From Flaccisagitta enflata (Eukaryota), in contig OZ231126.1 of NCBI GenBank assembly GCA_965153355.1, forward strand, positions 4,898,001-4,962,000: a stretch of 64,000 nucleotides of DNA, read 5' to 3'. The notes under the pieces were generated by a model. The model worked only from the letters and a program-made list of their open reading frames with translations. It searched no databases and was not told where the DNA came from. Made by a program: the position numbers and the translations under genes. Each line of letters opens with the position of its first letter. Position 1 is the stretch's first letter. Of this stretch, positions 2,493 to 62,382 are shown piece after piece.

Positions 2493-3519
2493 CTGAGACA
2501 AGTCACCCAAGGATCTCACATGGTGAGCGGGACCCGTTGTCCCGCTTGGGGTATTAAAGGTAGCAGGTGAAGTGAAAGCACAAAAGCGCCAATGTTCTGA
2601 AGAATACCCATGTCCAGGAAAAAGGTGAGGGGGATTGAGAGGACCTATGAGGTCTAATTTGAGTTTCGGTCAGTCAGGGCTTATTTCAAGTCTGAAAGTG
2701 CTGATTTTATATCAAACACGCAGACACGCAACTCTATAAGAGGTTTTGTCCACTGGTCCATCCGTAATTGGTCTGTCCATAAGCACGAGTCAAAAAGTGG
2801 GAAAATGAGCGTTTTAGAAGCTTTTTGTGTATGTGTCTATGCTAAAAGGGAGGTTGGGTGGAGTGAGGATAGGGGTTGGCTGCCCCTGCCCACCCGTCGG
2901 CAACAATATTGTGACCCCGCGTCACTTATTCTTAGAGAAGTGATTTCAAGTCCTTAAGAGCTGATTTCATGCTTAAGAGGGTTTATTTCAGGCCTGAGAG
3001 GGCTGATTTTTGGCCTGAGAAAGCTGATTACAGGCCTAAGAAGGCTGATTACAGGCCTGAGAGGGCTGATTTAAACTCCAGAGACTACATTAAGGCCGCA
3101 CTAGGCTGGACTGGAGATCCAGGCCTCGGGAGAGGGTGAGGGACATTCAGAAGTACGGACAAATATATGGAAATTCACCCCTGTTTTCAACACGACATTG
3201 GCCCTTTGGGGCCGCTGCCAAACGAGAGAGAGAGAATGAGCACAGTAACTATAAGACAGTGGAGACAGAGACAGAGAGGGAGATAAAAAGTCAGAGGAAG
3301 AAAAAAAAATATATCCACTTATTTTCACGAAGGTTACGTCATGTCATGAGACAAACAAACAAAAGAGCCATTTGGAAAAAAAAACGAAAAACTCAATTTT
3401 TCTTCTTCACTTTTTTTTTTAGTTTTTTTAATAATGAGTAGTCATGTGCATTACCCCAGGTCAAAATGATTGTAATCACGTGACAAAGCACGCGACATCA
3501 CGCAAACACGACTTTTCCC

Positions 3520-4669
<1,150 letters not shown>

Positions 4670-4904
4670 AAAAACAGACAAACAGCAAGACCACACCTCA
4701 AGTTTTTGACGGTTACGGCTAAATCATTTTTAGTTGCGTACACGTAACTGTATAAGAGGCTCTGTCCATCCGTCCGTCCGTAATGATCGAGTCGAAAAGT
4801 CAACAAGCGCTTTAGATATTTTTTGTTTATACTTGTGGGTATGTCGGAGGGGGGGTGGATGGAGGCACACCCGTCCGCAACGATATTGTGACCACACGTC
4901 CCTT

Positions 4905-5620
4905 GGGTGCTTCACATAACAAAATTTGGGATTAATTCTTCTTCACTCCTACTTAGGTAATATGAGGAAACAAAATTCATAAGATGGAGTAATTTTTTTT
5001 TTTCAAAATTATTTTATTTCCTTCCGTTTTTAAGCGGCTTTGGCTTTAAAGTTCCTACAGATTTCCCAGAATTCAGCAACATCTCAAAGTAGTTTTGTAA
5101 CAAACAAGTGACGCAGGGGCTGCCAAGATGTTACACGAGTGGGCAGGGCATCCACCCCCCACCCACACCAAATCCCACCTTCAACACTCACATACACCAA
5201 AAGCATTAAAAACGCTGCCAACTAGATCACCATAACGCATTTGACCAACCGACTGAACCAAACCAAACAGACAAAGCCTTCTATAGAGTTGCATGTCCGC
5301 AACTCAAAAGGACAACTATTTGCTTCGAAAAATCATGATGTTGGTAAAAATTAATAAAAATATCAGTACATAAGCTATGTAAGAGCTTATAAAAAAGCAC
5401 AATTATAATTTTTTGAAGAATAGAAAGCTAATTCAAATAATGTCAGCAAATTGTTTTATCCCAGTGCATTATGCAAATTAAGTCCTCAAAAACAATTTTC
5501 AAAAGAACAGAAATGAACGATTTTTGATAAAAGAAAAATGCTAAGGGGTTCTAAAATTGGCCTCCATATTAGGTAAAGAGGGCGAAAAGAAATAACCAAC
5601 TTTTGCTATGTGAAGCACCC
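4905..5620. mobile_element. Non-autonomous TIR element (MITE) nested in a DINE-like element
   Basis: Termini gggtgcttcacata / tatgtgaagcaccc, with imperfect inverted similarity over ~60 bp; flanked by the direct repeat acgtccc(tt) at 4896 and 5623. Confidence 0.75.
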
Positions 5621-14000: not shown

Positions 14001-16065
14001 ATGAAAATCGTGAAAGCATAGGTCATCGACCCTTTTGGGGCCGCTGCCCAAAATGGCCAGCCTGAAGGCCTGCAAATCCCAGCTCAAGGCCCAGATTCTA
14101 GCCTCAAGGCCCAGATCCTAGCCTCAAGGCCCAAATCCTAGCCTCAATGCCCAAATTCTAGTCTCAAGGCCCAACTCCTAGCTTCAAGGCTCAGATCCTA
14201 GCCTCAAGGCCCAAATCTTAGTTGAGTGCGGGTGGACAGGGGCTGTATTTGAGGTCACTTGATCATATGGGCAGGAGCAGTGAGGCCATAGACCAAACAA
14301 AGTAAAAATAGCTGCGAAAGCATTAGATGGGCAGTGGTACCTGTGCCCTGCCTAAAGGGGTTGATGACCTATGCTTTCACACATATGGGAATTTTCCTTC
14401 TCCTCCCTCCTTCTTCCTCCCTCCTTCATCTCTTCCCCCTCTCAAATCCCGGCCCCAAGGCTAAGATTCACTCGAGGCCCAAATCCCAGTTTTTGAGGCC
14501 CAAACCCAGCCTCCCAAGGCCATTTTCCCAAGAGGCCCAGATGCCAACTTCCAGGCTGAGATTTGGGCCTTGAGACTGGGATCTGGATCTCAGGACTAGG
14601 ATTTGGGCCTCAAGACTGGGATTCGGGCCTCAAGACTGGATTTTGGGCCTCAAGACTGGAATTTGGGCTTCCAGACTGGAATTTAAGCCTACAGACAGGA
14701 ATTTTCTTTTCTATGATTGAACTAGTCATCCAAGGATCGCACATAATCATACCCGATGCCCTGCTTGGGTGATGGCAAAGCAGTGGAGTGAGAGCAGGGC
14801 AGCGGCCCCCAAAGGGCCGATGTCCTGCAGGACACAGGAGGGAATTTCCATACGTCCTATGGGGGAATATAGCAGGCCTAAGAGGTACTTGAGATGGGGT
14901 TTGAGGTCTGAGGAGGTTTATGCCTAAAGATTAGATTTGAGGTCTGGGGCAGGCTTTAGGCCATGGGGGCAGATTTGAGTCCTGGAGGGCCGATTTGAGG
15001 CCTAGAATGCTGATTTGAGGTCTGGAGAGCGGATTGGCCTTGAGGGCAGATTTGAGGCCTGGAGGGCTGATTTGAGGTCTGGAGAGCGGATTTGAGGCCC
15101 GGAGAGCTGATTTGAGGCCATGAGAGCTGATTTGAGGGCTTAGAGGGCCTAAATCAGGCCTGAGAGTGAGGATATGAGGCCTCGATGGCCAAATGGGGAC
15201 TTGACGGACGGAAGGGACGGACGGACGGACGGGATCGGCGGGAAATTCCCCCTGTGTCCTTACAGGACATCGGCCCCTTTGGGGCCGCTGCCCAAAAAAG
15301 CATCAAACACGCTGGGCTGTTATTTTGAGCCTTGAGGGTGGATTTGAGCCTTGAGGCTGGGATTTGAGCCAAGGGTTTGAATCTGGAGCCTGGGCTGGGA
15401 TTTGAGCTTTGAGGTTGAGATTTTGTATTTTGAGGCTAGGATTTGCCTCAAGACTAGGATTTAAGCTTCAAGGCTGGGATTTTGTACCAAGGCTGGATTT
15501 GAGCCTCAAGACTGGGATTTGCTTCGAGACTGAGATTTGAGCCTGAGACTGCGACGAGTTGAGGCTGGGACTTGAGCCCAAGGCTAGGGATTTGCCTCAA
15601 GGTTGGGATTTGAGCTGAGGCTGGGATTTGAGCCCAAGGCTAGGATTGAGCCTGGGGGTACATAGAAGAAGCCAGCGAGAAATTCTGTGTGAAAGCACAG
15701 GTCATCGGCCCCTTTCTCGTCATGCCCAAAAAGGGAAAAAAATCAGAAGTTAAATAGTGTAGAGCAGTTGGTAGAGTTGCTTGATCACCGAGTTGGATGA
15801 CCGACTGAGTTTGAAGCAAAAGGAAGAGCGATCCATTAGTAACTTGGTATTTGAATTTGCACGTAGTTGGCTCAACAGCTTTCTTGTCCATTCGTACATA
15901 CACTCAAAATTCCCTACCCTCCCTGCGCCTCTTGAGCCCTGATCCTGCCCTCCCTAGCCTTCATTCAGCCCTCCTGTTAGTCCATTTGTCCGTCCATCTG
16001 TCTATCCATCCCCCTCAGGCTCTCTCAGGTCTGAGATCCGCCGACTCAGGCCTGAAATTCCCAAA
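11045..16065. mobile_element. Nested cluster of non-autonomous inverted-repeat elements carrying 20-21-bp minisatellites (Helentron/DINE-like inferred)
   Basis: Repeated ~45-bp inverted motif gggcagcggccccaaaggg..gatgtcctgtagaacacagggg around arrays of ctgggatttgagccttgagg or tttgaggcctgagagggctga, followed by a tail aagcagggca.gggtaccgctgacca. Confidence 0.75.
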
Positions 16066-16069
16066 TTAA

Positions 16070-16430
16070 CATGATAATTTGAACAACAAACATTTTTACC
16101 TGATGAAAATGCCAATTTTGGCCATTTGAGGTCATTTTTTGCCTGCTTTTGGCCTGCTGTGACCCTGGTATCAGTGTCCAGAGATCTCAGTTAGTATCTT
16201 TGTCCTAGTTCTGACTAGATTGAGTGAGATCTCCACAAAAAAATTCGAACAATTATGATATTTGAGATGCAGGTTGACATCACTTAGGCCATTTTAGCCC
16301 ACCCTGGGCCTGTTATGGCCCCGGTATCAGTTTTCACAGCTCTCAATGAGTATATTTGACCTACCCTGACTGAAATTAGTGAGATTGGCTAAAAAATTCT
16401 GAATAACAATGATCTGCCCAATGAAAATGC
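16070..16430 (-). repeat. Inverted copy of the ~165-bp repeat, truncated at ~16430
   Basis: Reverse complement of units at ~10560-10860; stops mid-unit after 'aatgaaaatgca'. Confidence 0.85.
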
Positions 16431-19400
16431 ATCAACGACTTGTCATCAATCATCGAATCACCAAAATACCGTCAGTGGGGCGCATCCGTATCCAGCGCCG
16501 AACTGTTATCATCAGAATCCGCCAATTCAACAATCGCCGCCGACATATCTTCCGCAGGTTTCGTATCAAACGACACCGCAGCATCAGGCGTCGTCAACGC
16601 AAGCATCGCCGCCAAATTACCACGCAGCGCCGACTTGCAACCAAGTTTTTGCGAACAGCGGCGTTCACCAGTCACCGCAAAATCTGCAATTAAAGAAGAT
16701 TCAAAATAGACAAATCGACGTTTATCATCAATCACATCAACAACAAGCTAACATCATTCCTAACTGGGGAAATCAGACAAATCCTCCCTTCAGCCAAAAC
16801 TTTGGATTCCATCCAAACACGCCGCAAGACGCAAACTTCACTCGAACGCCGACTCAGTCTGCAGTCAACCCATTCGCGGCCGTCAGCCCATTAAACCAAC
16901 AAATCGGCAGCCAACAATCTCAGCGAGATCATAGCAGCCAATTGCAAACCACCGCCCAATTGCAAACAAACTTAACATATTTGCAACTGGAAGCAACAAA
17001 TCGACGCCAGCAATTGGAATTGGACCGGAAGATAAAAGAGTGTGACAACCTCACCGGCATCCTCGCGAACGCCAAATACAAAGAATCACAGGACAAGAAC
17101 GTCATTGACAATCAGAAACAACAATTAGAAAGTCAAAAACAACAGTCGGCAGAATACCGGGAGAAAGTTGAAATCGCTGAACAATCTCATCATCAAGAAC
17201 GATTATCCCATCAAGCGGCACTCAGAAAAATCATACGGCTGGAAGAAGAACTGAAATTGGCAAAAGAAGAAATAAAGGCGATCAAAGGAAAACAAACACA
17301 AGAAAAAACTCGATTGCAACAAAATCACGACGTCCAGATCGCAAATAGCAACGAAGAATTGCGCATCAAAATCGCAGAGCTGGAATCTGCGAAACGAGAC
17401 TTAGCCGATATTAAGTCTGAAGGCCAAGAAGAATTCAATACAAGATTAATTGAAAAAGAAACGGAACATAAAACAGAATTGATAAAGATCAAATCGACAT
17501 ACCAAGAAGCACTCAACAAGAGAGTCGAAGACTTGCGGCTGCAATACGAAGAACGCATCGAGATCCTCAAAGGCCGAATCAACACCCACGATAAACATTA
17601 CGATAATTGGGTCATTCAAATCCGAGCCTTGGAATCTGAGACAGAGAAAGCCAAAGAGAATTACGAAAAACAAATCGACGGCTTAAAATCGGACGTTAAA
17701 TCACTTCAAACCCAACAAGGACGCTACGAACAATTACTAGAAATCGCCAACAAACGGTGCAAAATTCTCACGCTTCAAGTGACATACTCTGAAAAACTTG
17801 AAGCTGAAGCAAAAACAAAGACCGAAGAATATAACAACGAATTAATCAAAACAAAGGCCGAACTGCACAAAGCAAGATTGGAATTATTCACCATCCAAAA
17901 TCAACACCAAGAGAGCCCAAAAACGCCACTGCGGGATGAAGAAGATGGAAACGAAAATCGAGGCGACGACGACGACGACAACGACGTCAACGACGACGAC
18001 GAAGTCGCACGGGCCAACGCAAGAACTTATAAACCAACAATTGCCGCAAACTCATTTGGAAACGACATGTCAACCCCAGTCAGCGACGACAGAGCAACAG
18101 ACTCAACAATCGCAGCTGTCGGCGCTCGCAGCACCATTTCAAATGACGTCACAAAAAGTATCACAGCAGCAGCAGCAACGATATCAGTTGCAACAGTCAA
18201 CGCAAACACGGCCGTTGACGTGGTGGGAACGAATACAACAAGCGGCGCGAATACCACCGCCATTACTTCCGCCGCCACCCCTTCCACCACCACCACTTCC
18301 GCCGCTGCCACCGCCGACATTAAACCCAACATTCATCTCACCGATGGTTCCACCGGAGACGCTCCGACCGAGGATTATAACGAGTCGCCATCAACATCAG
18401 TCACCGAAGGTCGGGAAACGAATTACAACAAGATGGTCGTCGATGCCATCCTACGAGCGTCAACCACAATCGACGTCGAAGCCATCAAAGACATCCTTAG
18501 AACAACCACCGACGGAAACAAATTTCCAATCACCACTGCTTACACTGGAAATAAGACAACCTACAAACTCGGAAGCGTCGGTTACGGCATTCTCAACGGG
18601 GCAATCACACCAACAGGAAACACCGTCAGTCCAGCCTTCACGAGAGCTTGCAAAAAGCAATGGATCATCAATTGTCTCAATGGCAATGAAATCATCGGGG
18701 ATATCAGAGACAAAAATAAAATCACCGAACTCATGCGTCATCACGGGATCAGAATTATCACTACCCAGCAAGGACGACGAATCAATGAGCGCGGACACGT
18801 CATGGTCGATGACATCACCTACAACGACGACGTCAACGGAGACCCAGATTGGCAACCAGACAACGAGGACACAGACACAAAATATGAAAAAGACTCCACA
18901 AGCGCCGTTTTCGAATCCGGGCCGGTCAAGAAAACAACAATGGCAAGAAAACTGCAGCAGAATAGCAGAAACAAGCAAACTGGCGCAATCACCTCAGCTG
19001 CTGCAAGTCAATCTGAGCGGATCAGTGCTAATGAGTCCGCACCAGTTGGAAAAACTGAACCAATTGATGCAGAATTGCATCATCATCAGCCCAATGCCGA
19101 GCAGATTGACAAACCAACAACAAAGATGCCGAAGTTGTCCTTCAAAAGAAAGAAAAATGCCACCGGAAAGTGCGGCAAACGGAAGCAAGCAAATATCGAT
19201 TCAATCAGAGAGAAGGCCATCGATCCCGACAACGACGCAAATGACACATCCTCAACGAGAAAATCCGCAGCAGAGCCAGCAGCGGCAGCAACAGCATCAG
19301 CAGCTACCACAACAGATGCCGCAACAGCAGGAGCAGCAACATCAGCAAATGGCGCCCCAGACAGCGGATCTTCAATATGGTCAAAATTCAAACAATTGGG

Positions 19401-22400
19401 AGGCGCCAAACAAAATCCTTCAAGCAGCAACCTCGAAGCCAATAATGAAGGAATCAACCTCGAAATGGCCAAACATAGAATCAAACAAAATGACGACGCA
19501 TGGCTGGCAGACCAAATCTACAAACAAGAAGGAGAAAGGCGACGCAGCCCGAGGGCGAATGCGGGAAAGAAATATCAGCGACACTGATAAAATGCAAAGA
19601 CTTGACCAAGATTTGAGCAACGACGTAGCACACTACAGTAGAGTAGCAAACTCAATCAGCAACATAGAAAAGCGGATAAAAGAGTTGGACGACGTGCTGC
19701 AAGAGGCGACTCAGAACATTGTAAATATTTCTCGTCCTTCACAAAACTTCATGATGTCGAGATTGGCAGAAGCAAAAAGATGTAGGAATGAAGCGGCTTT
19801 GATCAAGAAGAAAGGAAGCATCAATGATCCAGATGTTCAAGCACGCATCACTGCCCTTCTAGCGAAATCAGCTGATATCATCGAAGAACTCATCAGCGAC
19901 AATCCACGAACAGGATTTAACCACCATGAAGCTCAAACAGCCATGTTCAACATATCAATAAATTCAATGGTTTCAAACGAACTGATGCGTCAAATAGTCA
20001 AGGAAATGACAAATGCCTTCGAATATTTGCTGCAAACCATTGGAAGAACAATGGGCAATCTGAAAAAGGCAATTTCAGATGAAAAATTGGAGAAATGTCT
20101 TCCTCATGAACAGACATTCGACCAATTGATACGACAAATGCAAATTAACATGGACATCGTCAACGCGATGATGGAAAAGGTCACAGCCTCAGGCGACGAC
20201 GTCCGGCGACTACAGGCGACAGCGGAATTGAGCATAGAATTGAGCCAAGCTGAAAGACCAACACACCGAGTAATGGAATTTGTAGAGATCGGCAGAATAT
20301 TGGCGGAAAAATGCGGCGTTGCATTATTGACAACCGCTTCAGCAGCATCAACAAGATTTGAACAAGCAACCCAGAGATTGTTCAACACAAACGAATTGTC
20401 ACGCGATTCTACATTCCATCGAATCATTAGTCAAACTCACATCGAGCTACCATGCTTCAACAACGTTACTTACCCTGAAAATACCTTCGGGAATACAAGA
20501 ATCCCATACAACGTCAATGACCTCGTGACAATTCATGAATCCCTCACAAGAGAATACAACGCATTGAGAGTCGCATATAAGTCGTTGATGGGAATATGCG
20601 AAATACAGCTAAGAAGAATTGACGACATGAGCATTCAAATACTCACTATGCAACAATGGTTCCTAGATTATGTTGCAAAAATCAGAGAGATCAATCTCTG
20701 CAACGATCTTCTCCTTTTGACCGAACAGTCAAAGAGGATAAAGTATGGGAAACGGTTTGACGAAGTCATCACTCTCATGGACATCCACCACAACGAATTG
20801 GAAGTCACTTGCAACGAGATTCCACATCCTCGACCGGAAAGATTGGACCGAATTGCCACAATCAACGCCACTACATTGCAATCCATCGCGGAAGTAATCG
20901 CCAATCACATTAACCTCAACATCGGCGCAACTAAGAGTGAACAACAATACGAGGATTATTTCATCTCATTGGCCTCAGTGCCAGAATTGGACAAAAGCAT
21001 ATTGACAATAGTAGGCGAATCACCAACGGCAAGCAATTACGTAACGCCGACAGAGAGCCAAGACGGTTCTGATACAAGACTATCACCCAGATCACCATCA
21101 AACGAGCCTCGAGAAAAATCAAAATCGCCATCTCAATACATGCGAAAGGAAAGTAAATCTCCAAACGGCGTCAGAAACACTAGCGCACCATTGTCGCACA
21201 AATCAAGGATAACTGAATCGCCAAAAACCACGACAACGGTGACTCAACAACAGCAACAAATTAAACAACAAGCTCCAACACAAAAAGGAAGAAAAAAGAA
21301 AAAACCAGCTCGAAAAATAAAGGCTAAAGGGAATCAAGCGGCCCAACCAATTCAAACAACAGCGCCAAATAACAAAAACAACGGCTCCAATAGGTCAAGA
21401 AAGAAAACAACTAAAGCAGAAACAGACGAGGAGACGATGCAACGGCAAAGATTATACGGAGCCATCACTCAAATAAGTGGCAATGCGGGCATTTTGACCC
21501 CAAAGGAGACAACGGGGGTAATAGCCCATGTGAAAGCGGCAAATGGTGACGCAGAGGATGAAGACAACGAGATATGGTTCAGCATTGAGACGGGCGACAA
21601 CTTCCAAAACGACCAATGGAGAACAAAAGCCAGGCTGTACAGAGAGACTCTCATCCGCGAAAGTGGAGGAGATCCTAAGGCATTTGATAAAGAAGAAGAA
21701 TACGCCCCAATATGGAACCCTCGAACAGGCAGATTAATCGCTAGAATATACAAAAGGCGTATAGTAGCCGAGCTGAACACACCCGATTATCAAATCAACA
21801 TTAGCGACGCCATGAATGGCATGTCTCCGAATGAAGTGTGCGCAATAAAAAGTTTAATCGAATTTGGACGCTCAGAGAAGCAGCATCAACGCGCGATGGA
21901 ACGCGCGGGACCGGCAGATAGGGCAAGACTCGTTTTGGAACGACGCCAACTGACAGATTGCGTACAAGAGCAATTACAACTCATATCACCAGATTCGGGC
22001 TCAAACATTTCAAACGCCTTCGCAAAAATCCAATGGGATACAGACCAAGGCACTTCATCTACTGATAAAACACCCGAAGACTCAATATCAAATTGCCCAC
22101 AAGGAAGCGTCATTGAAGGCGGCAATAGAATGCTTCTACCAGAAAGAGAGCAAGACTTCAAGCAAGAAAGAAGCAATTACACATCAGAACAAATGCAAGT
22201 AATACGGTATTATCAGCAGCAGGCCGAAAGACTTGAAGAAGAGCTCAAGAAAACAATGGAACCAGATATCTCGGACGAAGAAACAGAATCAATCAGAGTG
22301 TTATACAAGGCCTTGCAACAGCAATACAGGTCATCAATGGAACTGGCAAAGAATGACCTACGCATCTTCGACACACTCCTCGACGTCTCAATAATGCATG

Positions 22401-23505
22401 ATGATGACCCAAGGAGAGAAGCAAAAATCGCAAAATATGAAACGGCAGAAGCAGAGCACGCACAAGCAAGAGCCACACTTGATGATTGTATAAGAGTCAC
22501 AACGGAAATGATGAAAAAGATCGAATCATTTAACAAAAAGAAGATCAACGACAAAGTCAAAAGATACAACAAAGGAAGATGCGGCAGGAAAGCGGCAATG
22601 AAATGGATAAAAAGACGCACAAAAGAAAGAGATGAAATGGAAAGTGATAGACAAAAGGTGGAACAAACAATAATGAGCAGCATCACCAAATTACCTCCAG
22701 GCTTCTCCGCGAAGATAAATGTGAGAAGATCAAACGAGGACGGAGACACGGATGAAGAGGAGGAGGAAATTCCATTCGAAGAGTACTCTGACGACGACGA
22801 TGAGACGCAACGCATTTTCACCATTTCCGCAATATCGTCAGATAGGATGCCAGTCATGGAAGAAGAGGCGATCGAATATCACCCAACTCCACCAACGTTT
22901 CCAGTAACACCTCCTCCGCCGGAAGATCCCAGCGATTCATCATCCGACGAATATCCATTAGTCCCGCCATATTTAGCATCTCCTCCACCGGAATACAGTG
23001 ACGAGTATGAAGAAGAAATGCCGAGTCCACCGACTTTACTCAGAAGCGCCGGAACATCACCACATCCAATTATGGATGAAGACAGTTCAATCATTGAAAT
23101 CATAGAGACGGTCGAAAACGATGAAAATCAGCCGAGACGAGTAATCTTCTCAGCGTCAGCGGCGCCTCCAGAATATACTCCAACTGAAGATATTTGGAAG
23201 AAAGCAGTAATGGACATCATTGGGATGAAACAATCCGGCAATAAGCGCAAAAATGAAAACACTCTGAAAGAGATACTAAATGAATTGAAAAGAAAACATG
23301 ACCACGAAAATGACGGTGAATGCGAGAAATGTGAATTGACAGCTGAAGACATGATGCTTGAAATAGAACAACCATCCGAGGGAGAATCAGCAGCAGAAAT
23401 AACATCAAAACTGATCAAAAACATAAAGAAAGCAAAGAAAGCAATCAAGCATACACATACAAAGAGAGTCTCATCATTCACACAAACTGACAAACTGACA
23501 AACTC
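16431..23505 (+). mobile_element. Intronless two-ORF block, probably a fragment of an unclassified retroelement or endogenous virus
   Basis: Strong A>T skew, CpG-rich, and free of introns, microsatellites and MITE insertions over 7 kb, with abrupt junctions on both sides. No RT, integrase or capsid motif recognised. Confidence 0.55.
16432..19587 (+). CDS. Orphan ORF1, 5'-truncated (~1050 codons): Q/P/H-rich N-terminus, long coiled coil, Thr/Ala-rich linker, small globular segment, basic tail
   Basis: The frame stays open upstream of the track start (16942) back to a TAA at 16390-16392 inside the flanking repeat. First in-frame ATG is only at 18067. E/K/Q/L-rich heptad-like region at ~16960-17900. 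Confidence 0.8.
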   Translation, partial: STTCHQSSNHQNTVSGAHPYPAPNCYHQNPPIQQSPPTYLPQVSYQTTPQHQASSTQASPPNYHAAPTCNQVFANSGVHQSPQNLQLKKIQNRQIDVYHQSHQQQANIIPNWGNQTNPPFSQNFGFHPNTPQDANFTRTPTQSAVNPFAAVSPLNQQIGSQQSQRDHSSQLQTTAQLQTNLTYLQLEATNRRQQLELDRKIKECDNLTGILANAKYKESQDKNVIDNQKQQLESQKQQSAEYREKVEIAEQSHHQERLSHQAALRKIIRLEEELKLAKEEIKAIKGKQTQEKTRLQQNHDVQIANSNEELRIKIAELESAKRDLADIKSEGQEEFNTRLIEKETEHKTELIKIKSTYQEALNKRVEDLRLQYEERIEILKGRINTHDKHYDNWVIQIRALESETEKAKENYEKQIDGLKSDVKSLQTQQGRYEQLLEIANKRCKILTLQVTYSEKLEAEAKTKTEEYNNELIKTKAELHKARLELFTIQNQHQESPKTPLRDEEDGNENRGDDDDDNDVNDDDEVARANARTYKPTIAANSFGNDMSTPVSDDRATDSTIAAVGARSTISNDVTKSITAAAATISVATVNANTAVDVVGTNTTSGANTTAITSAATPSTTTTSAAATADIKPNIHLTDGSTGDAPTEDYNESPSTSVTEGRETNYNKMVVDAILRASTTIDVEAIKDILRTTTDGNKFPITTAYTGNKTTYKLGSVGYGILNGAITPTGNTVSPAFTRACKKQWIINCLNGNEIIGDIRDKNKITELMRHHGIRIITTQQGRRINERGHVMVDDITYNDDVNGDPDWQPDNEDTDTKYEKDSTSAVFESGPVKKTTMARKLQQNSRNKQTGAITSAAASQSERISANESAPVGKTEPIDAELHHHQPNAEQIDKPTTKMPKLSFKRKKNATGKCGKRKQANIDSIREKAIDPDNDANDTSSTRKSAAEPAAAATASAATTTDAATAGAATSANGAPDSGSSIWSKFKQLGGAKQNPSSSNLEANNEGINLEMAKHRIKQNDDAWLADQIYKQEGERRRSPRANAGKKYQRH

Positions 23506-23602
23506 CGATGTATCGCAGCTTGGAGCCTGGGGACTTCACAGCCAATTCCCAGCACCAAACTCCTCCCGGATTGGCCTGGCAATTTGCCGGAAGTTAATCT
23601 GA
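19592..23602 (+). CDS. Orphan ORF2 (~1336 aa from ATG 19592; frame open from ATG 17936, 1888 aa), helical with a Pro/acidic C-terminal region, 3'-truncated
   Basis: The ATG lies 4 nt after the ORF1 stop (cacTGAtaaaATGcaa). Folded-looking sequence starts at MQRLDQDLSND. The last ~30 codons read into a Tc1 relic. Confidence 0.8.
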   Translation: MQRLDQDLSNDVAHYSRVANSISNIEKRIKELDDVLQEATQNIVNISRPSQNFMMSRLAEAKRCRNEAALIKKKGSINDPDVQARITALLAKSADIIEELISDNPRTGFNHHEAQTAMFNISINSMVSNELMRQIVKEMTNAFEYLLQTIGRTMGNLKKAISDEKLEKCLPHEQTFDQLIRQMQINMDIVNAMMEKVTASGDDVRRLQATAELSIELSQAERPTHRVMEFVEIGRILAEKCGVALLTTASAASTRFEQATQRLFNTNELSRDSTFHRIISQTHIELPCFNNVTYPENTFGNTRIPYNVNDLVTIHESLTREYNALRVAYKSLMGICEIQLRRIDDMSIQILTMQQWFLDYVAKIREINLCNDLLLLTEQSKRIKYGKRFDEVITLMDIHHNELEVTCNEIPHPRPERLDRIATINATTLQSIAEVIANHINLNIGATKSEQQYEDYFISLASVPELDKSILTIVGESPTASNYVTPTESQDGSDTRLSPRSPSNEPREKSKSPSQYMRKESKSPNGVRNTSAPLSHKSRITESPKTTTTVTQQQQQIKQQAPTQKGRKKKKPARKIKAKGNQAAQPIQTTAPNNKNNGSNRSRKKTTKAETDEETMQRQRLYGAITQISGNAGILTPKETTGVIAHVKAANGDAEDEDNEIWFSIETGDNFQNDQWRTKARLYRETLIRESGGDPKAFDKEEEYAPIWNPRTGRLIARIYKRRIVAELNTPDYQINISDAMNGMSPNEVCAIKSLIEFGRSEKQHQRAMERAGPADRARLVLERRQLTDCVQEQLQLISPDSGSNISNAFAKIQWDTDQGTSSTDKTPEDSISNCPQGSVIEGGNRMLLPEREQDFKQERSNYTSEQMQVIRYYQQQAERLEEELKKTMEPDISDEETESIRVLYKALQQQYRSSMELAKNDLRIFDTLLDVSIMHDDDPRREAKIAKYETAEAEHAQARATLDDCIRVTTEMMKKIESFNKKKINDKVKRYNKGRCGRKAAMKWIKRRTKERDEMESDRQKVEQTIMSSITKLPPGFSAKINVRRSNEDGDTDEEEEEIPFEEYSDDDDETQRIFTISAISSDRMPVMEEEAIEYHPTPPTFPVTPPPPEDPSDSSSDEYPLVPPYLASPPPEYSDEYEEEMPSPPTLLRSAGTSPHPIMDEDSSIIEIIETVENDENQPRRVIFSASAAPPEYTPTEDIWKKAVMDIIGMKQSGNKRKNENTLKEILNELKRKHDHENDGECEKCELTAEDMMLEIEQPSEGESAAEITSKLIKNIKKAKKAIKHTHTKRVSSFTQTDKLTNSDVSQLGAWGLHSQFPAPNSSRIGLAICRKLI

Positions 23603-23768
23603 TAACAAATTTTTGGTCGCAGATGAAGAATATGCAGCAACAGGAATACGCTACTTCAATTGAGGGTCTGAAAAGTCACGCCATCTTACCTAAAAGCCTT
23701 GTACAAATTGCTGCTGGCGAGAATGCAGGCAGTGATTAGCTAGGAGGGACACCATACCAACTATTGAG
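23505..23768 (+). pseudogene. Decayed Tc1-like transposase C-terminus
   Basis: LLPDWPGNLPEVNLITNFWSQMKNMQQQEYATSIEGLK matches the Tc1 WPxxSPDLNPIENxW motif. After a frameshift, PSYLKALYKLLLARMQAVIS*EGHHTNY* matches the RxxAVIxxxGxxTKY end. Confidence 0.85.
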
Positions 23769-23984
23769 AACCATTTGGACATGTTTTTGTATCATTCTAG
23801 GCGATATATGAACTGACACTCATTTTGATGCTAAACTTATTTCTAAGGTAGTAGAGTCAGTAATCAAATGTACAATCCAGACTAATTTTTCATCAGTTGA
23901 TTCCCCTTGAACTTCATGATGATCATGTGGCAGAAAGTAAATCTTTAAATATAGGCAACATCCCAATTCTAGAAAACGCTTTAC

Positions 23985-24144
23985 CTGTAATGGTTGAATA
24001 ATGCTGAGACAATGAGAGATGAAATGGTGAACATGAAGGCTGTGTCAAACTGGAAAATCATTCTTGTTGGGCATTTGTGATAGATGGTGGAAAAAATCCC
24101 CTCAAATACAAAACTCCAGGCGATGGCATATGCGAGGGAGTAAT
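23985..24144 (-). CDS. SID-1/SIDT-family gene, last visible exon
   Basis: ttttag|..|gtaaag; DYSLAYAIAWSFVFEGIFSTIYHKCPTRMIFQFDTAFMF matches the SID-1 hallmark EGxxSxxYHxCP...FQFDTxFM. Confidence 0.93.
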
Positions 24145-39181: not shown

Positions 39182-44070
<4,889 letters not shown>

Positions 44071-58144: not shown

Positions 58145-59298
58145 GCAGGGCCGAGGGGGTGTTTATATTTGAAGCGCCTTTGATTACCCCCCCCCCCCGC
58201 CCCGATATACAGGCAGGGGTGCATACAATTGAGTTGCCTTTGCTTCCCCCTCCTGCCTTTGAATTTTTATTTCTCCCACTGCGCGTTGCATCCTGTACGA
58301 AATCTATGATTATGATCTTCATAGGACAATAAAATAGTACATTTTGGGCTCGTATAATGTCGAATGTGTGTAAGTAATGATGATCAATGATGATCAATGA
58401 TGATCAATCTCCTCCACTTTTGGGCAGCTGCCCCGAAGGGGTCAATGACCTACACTTTCACTCATATGGGGAATTTTTTCCTTCTGCTGCTTCTCCTCCT
58501 TTGTACCCCCCCCTCTTGGTCCAAAATTCCAGCCTAGTGGCCTAAATTCTACCAAATTCTGCCAATTTTTGCCTATTTTTGCCAAATCCTGCCAAATTCT
58601 GCCAAATAAGGTCCTTTGGGGCTGATGCCCTGCTTCCTCCCTAAAATCAATCACAACCTACTAAGGCAGGGCGCGGGTGCTGCTGACCATCTCACGCCCC
58701 CTGGAGGGGCAGATGACCTATGATTACACAGAGGGCGATTTTCTCCAGTTATGATCTACATCCCGTTTTTCCCAGGCCTCAAAACAGGCCCTCAGACCCC
58801 ATAACAATCCTCTCAGACCCAAAATCAGGCTTACAAGGCCCAACTCAGGCCTCTCAGACCCAATTCTAACCTTTCAAACCACAAGTCAGGCCTCTTAGAC
58901 CCTTATTCAACCCCCTCAGATTCCCAAAAAAAATGTCTTCCAGACCCCAACTGAGGCCTCACAGACCCATTTCAGGGTTCTCAGATCTTAAATCAGACCC
59001 CCCAGACCTCCCGTACCTCAAATCCAGCCTTTCAGACCCCAAATTAGTCGACTTAGGAAATCGTCCTGTGTAGAATCATGGGTCATCTGCCCCTCAGGGG
59101 CCTCTGCCCTTCTCACCATCATATCCTATTATAAACTAACTCAGGGGCATCGGACACAGCTGATCATGTAACGCTATAGCGATTATTTTCTCTCTCTCTT
59201 TCTCCTCATTGGTTCTCTTCCCCAAATTCTGAACCCTTTGCTTCCCCGCCCCCTCTGTTCAATTCAACACACTCAACCATGAACATCCCTGTCCTCAG

Positions 59299-60414
59299 GA
59301 TGTGGTGACAACACTTACGTCCTGGAACGTGGATCATATCGACCTCCGTTTGAACGCGAAAGGAGGTCGCGTTTTCAAGAGGATCCGCGCGTCAATTCTG
59401 CCCTTTTCATTGACCGCCGAAATTGAATACGATGAATGGGGACACGAGCCTTCAGACTACAGTCAGGCTCAAAAGGATTTCCTGAAGCTGCTTGAAATGG
59501 AGAAAGACGCAGATGTGGTATTCATAGTCGGCGATGGCAAAGGCGGCAGCGGCGGTGGAGGGGGCAGCAGCGGCAGCAAAAGTGGAGGGGAAGGCAGTGG
59601 CGAGGCAGGTGACGACAACAGTGGCAGTGGCAGCGGCAGTGGAAGCGGCAGCGGCAGTGGCAGCGGTGGCGGCAGCGGCAGCGGCAGCGGCAGCGGCAGC
59701 GGCAGCGGCAGCGGCAGCGGCAAGGACAGAGGCGAGGGCAGTGGCAACAGCAGTGGTGGTGACAGCAGCAGTAGTATCAGCGGTGGCAGTGGCAGCGAAA
59801 GTGAAAACAACAGTGAAAATGGCGACCTCAGCGGCAGCGGCAGTGACAGCTGCAGCAGCAGCAGTAATGGCAGTGTCAACAGCAATGTCAGCGGCGAGAG
59901 AATCATGGCCCACAAGAGCATTCTTTCCGCGAGATCGATTTATTTCGCCAACATGTTTGAGTCGGGCATGAAGGAGAATCTGACCAACCAAGTGAAGATC
60001 ACGGACGCGGAACCGGAAGTCTTCAGGGCTTTCCTGAGATACGTCTACGCGGAAATTCCGCCGGAAGATCCTCCTTTGGCGCTGAAAGTCATCGTCATCG
60101 CCGACAAGTACGGAATGAGAGACCTCAAAGAAGTCTGCGAAAGGGTTTTGTTCACCAATTTGAGTAGTCGGCGAGTGGAGGATATTGGCAACGTGGATGC
60201 GGTTGTCGACGCGCTGCTGATCGCCGAAAAGCTTCGTTGCGGGGATTTGCTGACGCGGGCCAGAGTCGTCTTGAAGGAAAATGTGGACAAGATCACCGAC
60301 GAGAATCGGGACAAGTTGATCAAGAATGATCCTCAACTTGTGTTTAAGATGTTTGAGCATGCTTGCAGGATCAATTCGAATCAACCGAAACGGATCAATA
60401 AGCTGTATTTTTAA
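59299..60414 (+). CDS. BTB/POZ-domain protein (SPOP/roadkill-like Cullin-3 adaptor), final exon
   Basis: cctcag|GAT acceptor; ADVVFIVG...IMAHKSILSARSIYFANMFESGMKE...ITDAEPEVFRAFLRYVY...IADKYGMRDLKEVCE is a canonical BTB, followed by BACK-like helices; AATAAA at ~60570. Confidence 0.93.
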   Translation, partial: DVVTTLTSWNVDHIDLRLNAKGGRVFKRIRASILPFSLTAEIEYDEWGHEPSDYSQAQKDFLKLLEMEKDADVVFIVGDGKGGSGGGGGSSGSKSGGEGSGEAGDDNSGSGSGSGSGSGSGSGGGSGSGSGSGSGSGSGSGKDRGEGSGNSSGGDSSSSISGGSGSESENNSENGDLSGSGSDSCSSSSNGSVNSNVSGERIMAHKSILSARSIYFANMFESGMKENLTNQVKITDAEPEVFRAFLRYVYAEIPPEDPPLALKVIVIADKYGMRDLKEVCERVLFTNLSSRRVEDIGNVDAVVDALLIAEKLRCGDLLTRARVVLKENVDKITDENRDKLIKNDPQLVFKMFEHACRINSNQPKRINKLYF

Positions 60415-60945
60415 CGTGTTTAAAGCGAGTTTATAGCGTGTTTAATATGTGTTGATAGCTTTATATATTATAGCGTGCTTGTAATATTCATCTCTGAAAA
60501 AAACAGCGTGCGAGCTTGCTTTCACTGATTGTAGGGTGAACTCATCATGATAGATATTACAAGAACCTTAATAAACTGATTCCTTGATCTTCTAATGATG
60601 TACAAAAATTGTTTTAAGTATTTAAACAAACACGAACATAGCGTGATTGGAGTTTTTTTTCTTTTCGGTCACTCTCTAATAGATATCTTATGCTCTTTGT
60701 TTGGCTTTTGTTCTTGCAATCACCATCACGAATGTTATGAAACAATGAACAGAAGCTGTATTGTCATCCCTGGAGGTCGTAGTTCTTCTTTGAGAGAAGA
60801 TAACTAAAAAAAAAGATTATCATTTAACATGGACTACAAAAGTTAGCTTTACAGCCTAATGTTTTGTCATTTCTTATCGATTAATATCGCTAAAATAACC
60901 TAAGGCTTGATAAAAACCTAAGTCAGTCTCTGTCTCTGTCTGTCC

Positions 60946-61080
<135 letters not shown>

Positions 61081-61714
61081 TCTTTCCATGGGCGGTGACA
61101 TTTCGAACCCTGTGCCAACAATGAATCATATGCTGAAAAATATGTTCCTCGTAAAACTTTCAAACGCAAATGATTCAGATTGCATCAACCAATCAAAATA
61201 TCCCAAAATTGGGAGACAAAAAATATTTCGGGAAAGGGAACCAACTTAAGAAAGAGAAGGCAGATGAGAAGACGCGGCAAAATGTTCACGGTCAAATTAA
61301 ATGAATTGGACAGTCAGTTTGATTCACTTAACGCAAGAGTCATATATATTCGGATTGGCGGACCGATCAAACAGACGGATGGACGGAGCTGTGGCGCACC
61401 TAAGAATGAATTTTTGGCATAAACATGTCAAACGGAGGCATGTGTTGTTCCAATACATTAAAATGTTATCGCTTGAAGACACGCTGAAGCACTCCGCAAC
61501 GCCAAGCTCGAATTTTGTGGCATTTGCGAAAAATAGGCAAAAAGAATCTATCGATTTGGTATGTACATATTTTGATATCATTCTTATTTGTTCGCGTTCC
61601 GAAGCACAAAGAAATGGCAGCGACGGAGCATTGGAATTGTGCGCTGCCAGCATATTGGCTTTTTGGCTTACAATAAAAAAAGCTGCCTCTTTGCTTTGGT
61701 TGTTATCATAAAAG

Positions 61715-61772
<58 letters not shown>

Positions 61773-62104
61773 GAGAACTGGGGACCGCGCGTGCTTATAC
61801 ATGCATCGTTGGGAACTCGAAGTTCGTAATTGTAGAGGCAGAAAGAGGGAAAATAGAAGGAAGAGAAGAAAATACAAAATGGGAAAGAGGGAAGAAATGC
61901 GAAGAGAAGAAAAAAGAAAAGAAACAAGGAAAGGAGGGAAAGGAGGGAAAGGAGGGAAAGGAAGGAAAGAAAGGAGGGAAAGGAAAGGAAGTAGGGAAAT
62001 GAAGGAAAGGAAGGAGCAAGGAATGGAGGAAGAAAAGGAGGTTGAAAGAAAGAAAAAGAATGAAAAAGGCGAAAGGGCACCGCTCTCCATTTTCTTCTGC
62101 CCTT

Positions 62105-62205
<101 letters not shown>

Positions 62206-62382
62206 GCCCTCAAAATTCAAATGGCGCATAGAATCAAGGACTTAATTAATCATGATCAGTAATTACAATGTCTTCACCACCAGATTTAAACAACAATAGG
62301 ATGCGAAGACAAAAAAGAATTTAGACTTTTAATGATATGCATTTGTACAAAGCGTCAGTAAGTTTAATTCTGCTTTGAATTA

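Follow-up and report, generated by a model that had tools for sequence, protein, structure and literature searches.

A long two-frame overlap downstream of an ATG-free tract suggests leaky scanning between two very large orphan genes of a multi-copy element in Flaccisagitta enflata

We analysed a 64,000-nucleotide stretch of DNA from Flaccisagitta enflata (NCBI GenBank assembly GCA_965153355.1, contig OZ231126.1, positions 4,898,001 to 4,962,000 of the forward strand; the whole stretch is referred to here as the window). It contains a copy of a multi-copy element that carries two very large orphan genes, ORF1 and ORF2, and belongs to no class that we recognised. On balance we favour the reading that the two genes share a dual-coding overlap and that ORF2 would be reached by leaky scanning through an ATG-free ORF1. 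Two independent signatures suggest that about 550 codons are translated in two frames and that ribosomes scan more than 1.5 kb of a translated gene. The first is that the frame of ORF2 is open within ORF1 beyond chance; the second, reported here for the first time, is a 1,509-nt tract free of ATG that ends at the first ATG of the ORF2 frame, at 17936. We infer both the translation of the ORF2 frame in the overlap and the leaky-scanning route from these sequence features.

The frame of ORF1 (frame A) extends from stop to stop over 16393-19587, its TGA (19585-19587) being directly followed by a TAA (19588-19590). The frame of ORF2 (frame B, +1 relative to A) is open over 17846-23602, starting 90 nt ahead of its own first ATG at 17936, and its ORF totals 1,888 residues. 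The junction reads TGAtaaaATG, with an ATG of frame B at 19592-19594, 4 nt after the ORF1 stop. Within the overlap frame B specifies a 552-residue peptide that contains PPPLLPPPPLPPPPLPPLPPP, is 49.5% Q, P, S and T, is probably disordered and runs stop-free into ORF2. The initial annotation of this DNA had already described frame B as open from ATG 17936 to 23602, with about 1650 nt open in two frames, a Q/S/T/P-rich +1 product and an ORF2 ATG 4 nt past the ORF1 stop, and its coordinates and composition were confirmed in each respect.

Frame A is certainly a gene. Among the database relatives of ORF1, P0003 (1,275 residues) matches it at 90% identity from residue 224 to 1275, and P0004 (960 residues), at 34% identity, covers 81% of the query. 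Both relatives follow frame A across the whole overlap to a shared C-terminus, ...NDDAWLA..IY....RRRS.R..AGKK.QR., and the overlap includes a conserved block in this frame (FP..TA......TY..G.VG...LNG.I.P......PAFTRACKK.WI...DIRD...I..LM..HGI..I.T.QGR.IN..GHV.VD). To judge from these relatives, A is the older, conserved frame; frame B, if translated, is the younger, overprinted frame. Downstream of the overlap frame B is, by its homology, a real gene, with 60% identity to residues 2-1350 of the 1,566-residue database protein P0002, in an alignment that begins at nt 19601 with P0002 residue 2. The nucleotide periodicity across the overlap is that of frame A. By codon-usage likelihood, frames A and B are inseparable in the overlap and both lie far above frame C, a result that we set aside, since the Q/P-rich regions used for training are similar to the frame-B peptide.

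We compared the open frame B with chance over 579 codons of the overlap, using three null models with 2000 shuffles each. Synonymous shuffling of ORF1 within the overlap, the check proposed in the initial annotation, gave a mean of 6.9 frame-B stops; permutation of codons gave 9.7 and resampling from the element's own codon usage 21.1. None is observed, and no shuffle was stop-free under any of the three nulls (0/2000 each). Frame C has 25 stops in the same overlap. In the reverse test, in which frame B was shuffled, 11.6-19 frame-A stops were expected, whereas only the two terminal stops are observed (0/2000 each). The same avoidance is seen codon by codon. The overlap has 21 ORF1 codons at risk of completing a frame-B stop (17 NTG and 4 NTA), and none does so (P = 6e-7, assuming independence; P = 1.2e-5 when restricted to codons past ATG 17936). 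Control regions behave as chance predicts, with stops completed in 4/20 NTG|A and 11/14 NTA|R contexts in ORF1 upstream of the overlap and in 35/89 and 45/73, respectively, in ORF2 proper. NTA and NTG codons are also rarer in the overlap, where 21 of the 92 codons with T at the second position end in A or G, compared with 35/91 and 162/310 in the two controls. Stop density is normal on both sides: before the overlap, ORF1 (16393-17845) contains 15 frame-B stops, of which 17843 is the last, and frame A has 27 in 19585-20938, which begin with the two ORF1 terminators. For both frames, the open stretch exceeds what chance allows. Because of the shuffles, the risky codons and the controls, the T-poor composition of the element (T = 14%), through which the initial annotation had allowed for chance, does not explain the open frame B, and chance by that route is very unlikely.

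The second signature lies in ORF1 immediately upstream of ATG 17936. No ATG occurs in any frame in 16428-17935. Over 16432-17934 a first-order Markov model predicts 19.3 ATGs against none observed, and the other 63 trinucleotides all occur there. When the codons are shuffled synonymously, with the protein kept Met-free, a mean of 9.0 out-of-frame ATGs arises, and 0/3000 shuffles contained none; in the tract an NAT codon is followed by G in 0/40 cases and a TGN codon follows an A-ending codon in 0/7. It is the longest ATG-free stretch on both strands of the window, the runner-up being a 631-nt stretch in a simple repeat. Past the tract ATG is common: the 1,656 nt that follow contain 30 and the 4,008 nt of ORF2 contain 89. 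The first ATG in any frame past it, at 17936, has the context gcgggATGa (G at -3), and the next, at 17945, has the optimal context aagaagATGg (A at -3, G at +4). The two belong to frame B, which then stays open to 23602. Relatives of ORF1 are likewise poor in Met at their N-terminal ends. P0003 and P0009 have Met at positions 1 and 24 and next at 766/767 (about 740 codons Met-free), and the distant P0004 and P0013 have it at position 1 and next at 489/490 (about 490 codons Met-free); the ORF2 relative P0002 contains 3.3% Met. As far as these proteins tell, a Met-free N-terminal part of ORF1 is common to two lineages. By analogy with known systems, an ATG-free upstream ORF whose next ATG opens the downstream ORF would be the signature of leaky scanning.

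We propose that a fraction of the 40S subunits scanning a full-length mRNA would bypass the ORF1 start and traverse the 5' part of ORF1, cleared of ATG in all frames, along a path of 1.5 kb as seen in the DNA and about 2.2 kb as judged from the Met-free ORF1 proteins. Initiation at the first ATG met, 17936 or 17945 in frame B, would make this the main start of ORF2, rather than ATG 19592. The stretch 17936-19584 would then code for two proteins, with frame A giving the C-terminal half of ORF1 and frame B a disordered, Q/P/S/T-rich N-terminal extension of 552 residues on ORF2. Under leaky scanning frame B must therefore stay open from 17936 to ORF2. The ORF1 stop may lie right at the start of the conserved ORF2 body because only a tolerant, disordered stretch can be overprinted, an idea that we put forward as such, and the TGAtaaaATG junction may be incidental, though it could serve reinitiation as an additional path to ORF2. 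The initial annotation had named three mechanisms for making ORF2, namely reinitiation at 19592, a frameshift fusion and an overprinted N-terminal extension; the last fits best, with the ATG-free tract leading to 17936.

Differences among copies of the element and among its relatives bear on this proposal in both directions. Of 845 copy-to-copy differences 40 were listed, 15 of them in the overlap. Among the differences listed, the position that changes both proteins (A2/B1) is affected in 1 of the 15 in the overlap versus 6 of 10 upstream (Fisher P = 0.007), and 0/15 create a frame-B stop. In 18073-18361, six of the eight listed differences are silent in B and change A. The initial annotation had suggested a search for +1 stops in related copies, and the result is divided. 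In the parts of the relatives equivalent to the overlap, a +1 TGA that would be forced whatever the codons (Met followed by I, M, T, N or K) occurs in 0/8 cases in P0003 and 0/5 in P0004, compared with 20/51 in ORF2, whereas P0015 does have a frame-B stop. The copy-difference data on constraint are suggestive only.

Several observations weigh against leaky scanning into a translated frame B. The finding was picked for being extreme, which weakens the raw P values. At four-fold degenerate third positions G makes up 39% in the frame-B overlap versus 17% in ORF2 proper, as is ordinary for a +1-frame composition. In 18642-19275, all six listed copy differences change B and five of the six are silent in A, so that there frame B shows no constraint on its sequence beyond staying open. 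For changes inferred from ORF1 protein variants, the A1:A2 ratio is 30:12 in the overlap versus 19:17 upstream, a difference that is not significant (P = 0.10) and may be biased by G-rich first positions. This copy, being truncated, lacks the start codon of ORF1 with its context, and a scanning path of about 2.2 kb is longer than the 900 nt on record. Relatives of ORF1 and ORF2 were compared as protein sequences, and the open frame B and the all-frame ATG-free tract are seen at the DNA level in this copy alone. When the frame-B peptide was searched with HMMER against 1.84 billion representatives, no ORF2 with such an extension came up and the only matches were P0014 and P0015. The latter is a 141-residue B-like ORF on an 888-nt contig, 39% identical to frame-B residues 396-519, and its stop about 60 codons ahead of the equivalent of the ORF1 stop closes frame B in that copy. 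That copy may be decayed, and many database copies are visibly broken (P0008, P0010 and P0012). Finally, a poly(A) RNA run of the same organism (X19), of which about 6% was read, gave approximately zero depth on the element, which is a statement of no expression in that sample and nothing more.

Of the alternatives, the one that survives best is that frame B is a by-product or a relic, open by chance and composition or retained from an ancestral function now unused, with the ATG-free tract serving some other end. We consider this unlikely. The selection of the finding as extreme, the +1-frame composition, the free variation of the B peptide among copies in the 3' half of the overlap, the P0015 stop and the silent poly(A) run all speak for it. 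They are opposed by the way in which two independent signatures, each far beyond chance, fit together, the tract ending at the very ATG that opens the long frame. A by-product or relic also sits poorly with the stops of frame C and the normal control regions, and with a Met-free N-terminal part of ORF1 common to lineages that are only 34% identical.

A second alternative, which we regard as quite unlikely, is that ORF2 is made by termination-reinitiation only, from ATG 19592, and that the open frame B upstream is untranslated. The four-nucleotide spacing of stop and ATG, which stands from the initial annotation, lies within the approximately 20-30 nt between stop and restart that an excerpt of PMC10275272 gives for termination-reinitiation systems. 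The ORF1 relatives share the same C-terminal end, the P0002 homology begins 3 codons past ATG 19592, and P0002 itself was called from a Met at nearly the same place. The start of P0002 is, however, little informative. The database proteins (n = 17; P0002-P0015, P0017 and P0018) all begin with M, and two of them begin at positions where their relatives have Leu, which suggests a bacterial-type gene caller that limits overlaps; because of such a caller, a start past the ORF1 stop would say little about frame B upstream. With 21 ATGs among the 552 overlap codons of frame B, we estimate that one would fall within three codons of the ORF1 stop in about one case in ten. The junction RNA (19490-19700) folds no better than its shuffles (z = -0.25), with no significant structure, and the only TGGGA within 200 nt upstream, which we take to be an 18S-complementary reinitiation motif, is at 19397, 195 nt away. 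Reinitiation moreover leaves unexplained the 21 stop-avoiding contexts, the 550 stop-free codons and the 1,509-nt tract ending at a frame-B ATG.

An ORF1-ORF2 fusion through a programmed +1 (-2) frameshift or splicing from A to B near the start of the overlap, in the manner of gag and gag-pol, is very improbable. In its favour, frame B is open 90 nt ahead of its first ATG, the four risky codons in 17863-17929 also avoid B stops (P of about 0.05 by estimate) and a natural fused form exists in P0014, which passes from the ORF1 tail through frame B into the head of ORF2. P0014, however, is a remnant ORF of 251 residues, seen on contigs up to 19 kb, and a 1-nt deletion after ...NNEG accounts for it. 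At the overlap start neither a slippery site nor a structure was identified (z = -1.16), and in the part of the poly(A) run that was read the only joints inside the element are those at the triplet repeat 17962-18002. A frameshift could dispense with the ATG-free tract, and the overlaps at known +1 sites span tens of bases. The frameshift named in the initial annotation gained no specific support.

Leaky scanning over 900 nt, through the AUG-free ORFs I and II, is described for rice tungro bacilliform virus and predicted for badnaviruses in an excerpt of PMC5902531, and the element resembles these Caulimoviridae, as far as that excerpt portrays them, in having a long upstream ORF without internal ATG in all frames and a next ATG that opens a large downstream ORF on what would likewise be the same RNA. 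It differs in its longer tract (1.5 kb in the DNA and about 2.2 kb inferred, versus 900 nt) and in ORFs that overlap by 1.65 kb, whereas those of the viruses abut. It also differs in lacking reverse transcriptase, protease and movement or capsid domains recognised by Pfam, and in residing in a marine eukaryotic genome rather than a plant virus. Overlapping genes and leaky scanning are textbook features of small viruses and are rare and short in eukaryotic genomes. The tymovirus p69/replicase and mammalian GNAS XLalphas/ALEX pairs are long overprinted pairs made from one mRNA by leaky scanning, with close start codons. Like them, the element has two long overlapping frames, of which the younger would give a proline-rich or disordered product with atypical codon usage; unlike them, it would have an ATG-free tract between starts about 2.2 kb apart, and what is overprinted would be a large conserved protein's N-terminal extension. 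As in other overprinted pairs, both frames are stop-free beyond chance, the older is conserved (as far as P0004) and the younger has an atypical composition.

Two further groups invite comparison. SART1 reportedly has a UAAUG stop-start junction, and as in SART1, caliciviruses, influenza B and the hypovirus CHV1, the ORF1 stop and an ATG in the ORF2 frame are here 4 nt apart and in different frames. By contrast with such systems, no structure beyond that of shuffles was found at the junction, and reinitiation of this type predicts neither a 550-codon open frame upstream nor an ATG-free ORF1. With non-LTR retrotransposons the element shares two ORFs, an A-rich and T-poor sense strand, multiple copies including truncated ones and a lower summed depth at the 5' end. 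It differs in that Pfam finds no reverse transcriptase, endonuclease or other domain in the 1,566-residue ORF2 protein P0002 and no known ORF1p or gag-type domain in ORF1, and the LINE-like hint in the labels ORF1 and ORF2 of the initial annotation was not borne out.

Domain and structure searches placed neither protein in a known family. No Pfam family matched P0002, P0004 or the frame-B peptide (P0016) at E <= 1, and none was found in the 1,888-residue frame-B ORF. The only match to P0003 was sub-threshold (tRNA-synthetase arm, PF10458), and Pfam matches overall were sub-threshold and coiled-coil-like; no RNase H domain was found in the element proteins. A sequence search of the PDB gave no match to ORF2 at E <= 1 and nothing meaningful overall. 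The ESM Atlas gave no usable match to ORF2, and for ORF1 it gave matches scoring <=0.89, mostly hypothetical or coiled-coil proteins. AlphaFold2 models reached a mean pLDDT of 46.6 for the N-terminal part of ORF2 (all helices) and 34.1 for the C-terminal part of ORF1, too poor for a fold search; the ORF2 body may be all-helical in this low-confidence model.

Searches for further relatives also came back empty. Protein patterns derived from the aligned ORF1 sequences hit 597 stretches of JGI metagenomes, of which none was confirmed as a relative, and a degenerate DNA pattern for PAFTRACKK matched 4 loci, none related by tblastn. Patterns run on IMG/VR matched 375 stretches for ORF1 and 364 for ORF2 with none confirmed, and gave no viral-contig relative. 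A word-indexed search with the overlap part of ORF1 found no match and missed even the relative P0004, presumably because low-complexity words overwhelmed it. We considered P0015 as the +1 frame of the P0004 lineage and rejected this assignment, the longest compatible run being 8 residues. A short remnant of the element, represented by P0014, P0017 and P0018, occurs on several long ENA contigs (up to 19 kb). The odd tail of P0010, in which an ORF1 N-terminus is joined to other sequence, matches only simple repeats of the window and gave no lead to splicing.

The features of the locus are collected in Table 1.

Table 1. Coordinates of the element copy and its features in the window
Feature	Position	Strand	Basis or remark
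ORF1, frame A, 5'-truncated copy	16393..19587	+	stop TGA 19585, then TAA 19588
ATG-free tract within ORF1, all three frames	16428..17935	+	ATG listing
Last frame-B stop (TAA) ahead of the long open frame	17843..17845	+	stop count
Putative long-form ORF2 start, ATG 17936 and ATG 17945	17936..17947	+	first two ATGs in any frame past the ATG-free tract
Candidate dual-coding overlap, 1,649 nt; frames A and B open	17936..19584	+	frame analysis
Stop-start junction, TGA TAA a ATG	19585..19594	+	sequence
ORF2 conserved body, frame B	19592..23491	+	P0002 homology
Frame-B tail without relationship to P0002, apparent mark of 3' truncation	23492..23602	+	end of P0002 homology

ORF1 consists of a Q/P-rich part, a coiled coil, an acidic T/A/S-rich low-complexity part, a conserved block (...FPITTA...PAFTRACKK...GHVMVDD), a basic stretch and a conserved C-terminus (...NDDAWLADQIY...AGKKYQRH). 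Its homology to P0003 begins at nt 16432, which corresponds to P0003 residue 224; the flanking repeat ends at 16414/16415, and no AG splice acceptor is present upstream of nt 16432. The first 223 codons are missing from this copy and are known only as protein. At the other end, ORF2 homology to P0002 ends at residue 1350 of 1566. As judged from these homology limits, the copy is truncated at both ends. Tandem, satellite-like repeats precede the element at 14460-15660 and 16060-16415, with units gggatttgagcctcaaggct... and a unit of about 180 nt ending ...aaaaaattc.aa.aa..atgat. Summed depth is very high over these repeats, DNA contigs have many 'goes back' joints there, and the second array adjoins the homology break at 16414/16415. 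On the 3' side (23492-24027), frame B continues for 37 unrelated codons into a stretch about ten-fold deeper, presumably another repeat family, and the depth jump in bins 23426-24027 marks a high-copy repeat after the frame-B ORF.

The element is present in many copies. In the organism's own DNA run 6,477 contigs lie on the stretch at 85-99% likeness, a count that includes the flanking repeats, and at many sites variant and reference letters coexist among the DNA contigs. Marine metagenomes of several studies also contain variants of the element. In the DNA run, summed contig depth (16503-23425) is about 1,200-1,950 in the 5' part of ORF1 versus about 2,500-4,200 in ORF2, a difference that would fit more 5'-truncated than full-length copies, depth not being a copy number. 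The lower 5' depth and the A-rich, T-poor sense strand recall retroelements.

A GAC/GAT triplet repeat at 17962-18002, which reads as poly-Asp in frame A and poly-Thr in frame B, draws hundreds of RNA and DNA reads that run into unrelated sequence and creates a false depth peak in bin 17707-18007. In the part of X19 that was read, 845 reads aligned, 843 of them only partly and almost all at this repeat. One metatranscriptome contig spans the junction (19366-19937) and may derive from DNA.

Elsewhere in the window, a 393-residue ORF at 59233-60411 (+) has a BTB/POZ domain (PF00651, E = 3.8e-18); it is presumably a host gene or exon and thus indicates that the host is eukaryotic. Long GA-rich simple repeats (3451-4911, 42067-42530 and 60945-62262) are open in several frames on both strands, reading (RE)n, and explain many of the 'ORFs' of the window.

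It is possible, and we suggest it tentatively, that these observations describe a multi-copy eukaryotic element of a kind not described before, mobile or virus-derived, which makes two giant orphan proteins (about 1,275 and more than 2,000 residues) from one mRNA by ATG-free scanning over about 2.2 kb and with 1.65 kb read twice, an architecture kept across lineages at 34-61% protein identity. Gene callers split or truncate such pairs, and the database relatives of ORF2 all start past the ORF1 stop. The finding flags a large orphan gene family that is abundant in marine metagenomes, for which a transposon, an endogenous virus and an amplified host gene pair are candidates. If true, leaky scanning here would involve the longest scanning tract, and the overlap would be among the longest dual-coding stretches, known in a eukaryotic genome. 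If confirmed, it would show that 40S subunits can scan farther beyond an upstream start than was known and would provide a natural system for how a conserved protein tolerates overprinting.

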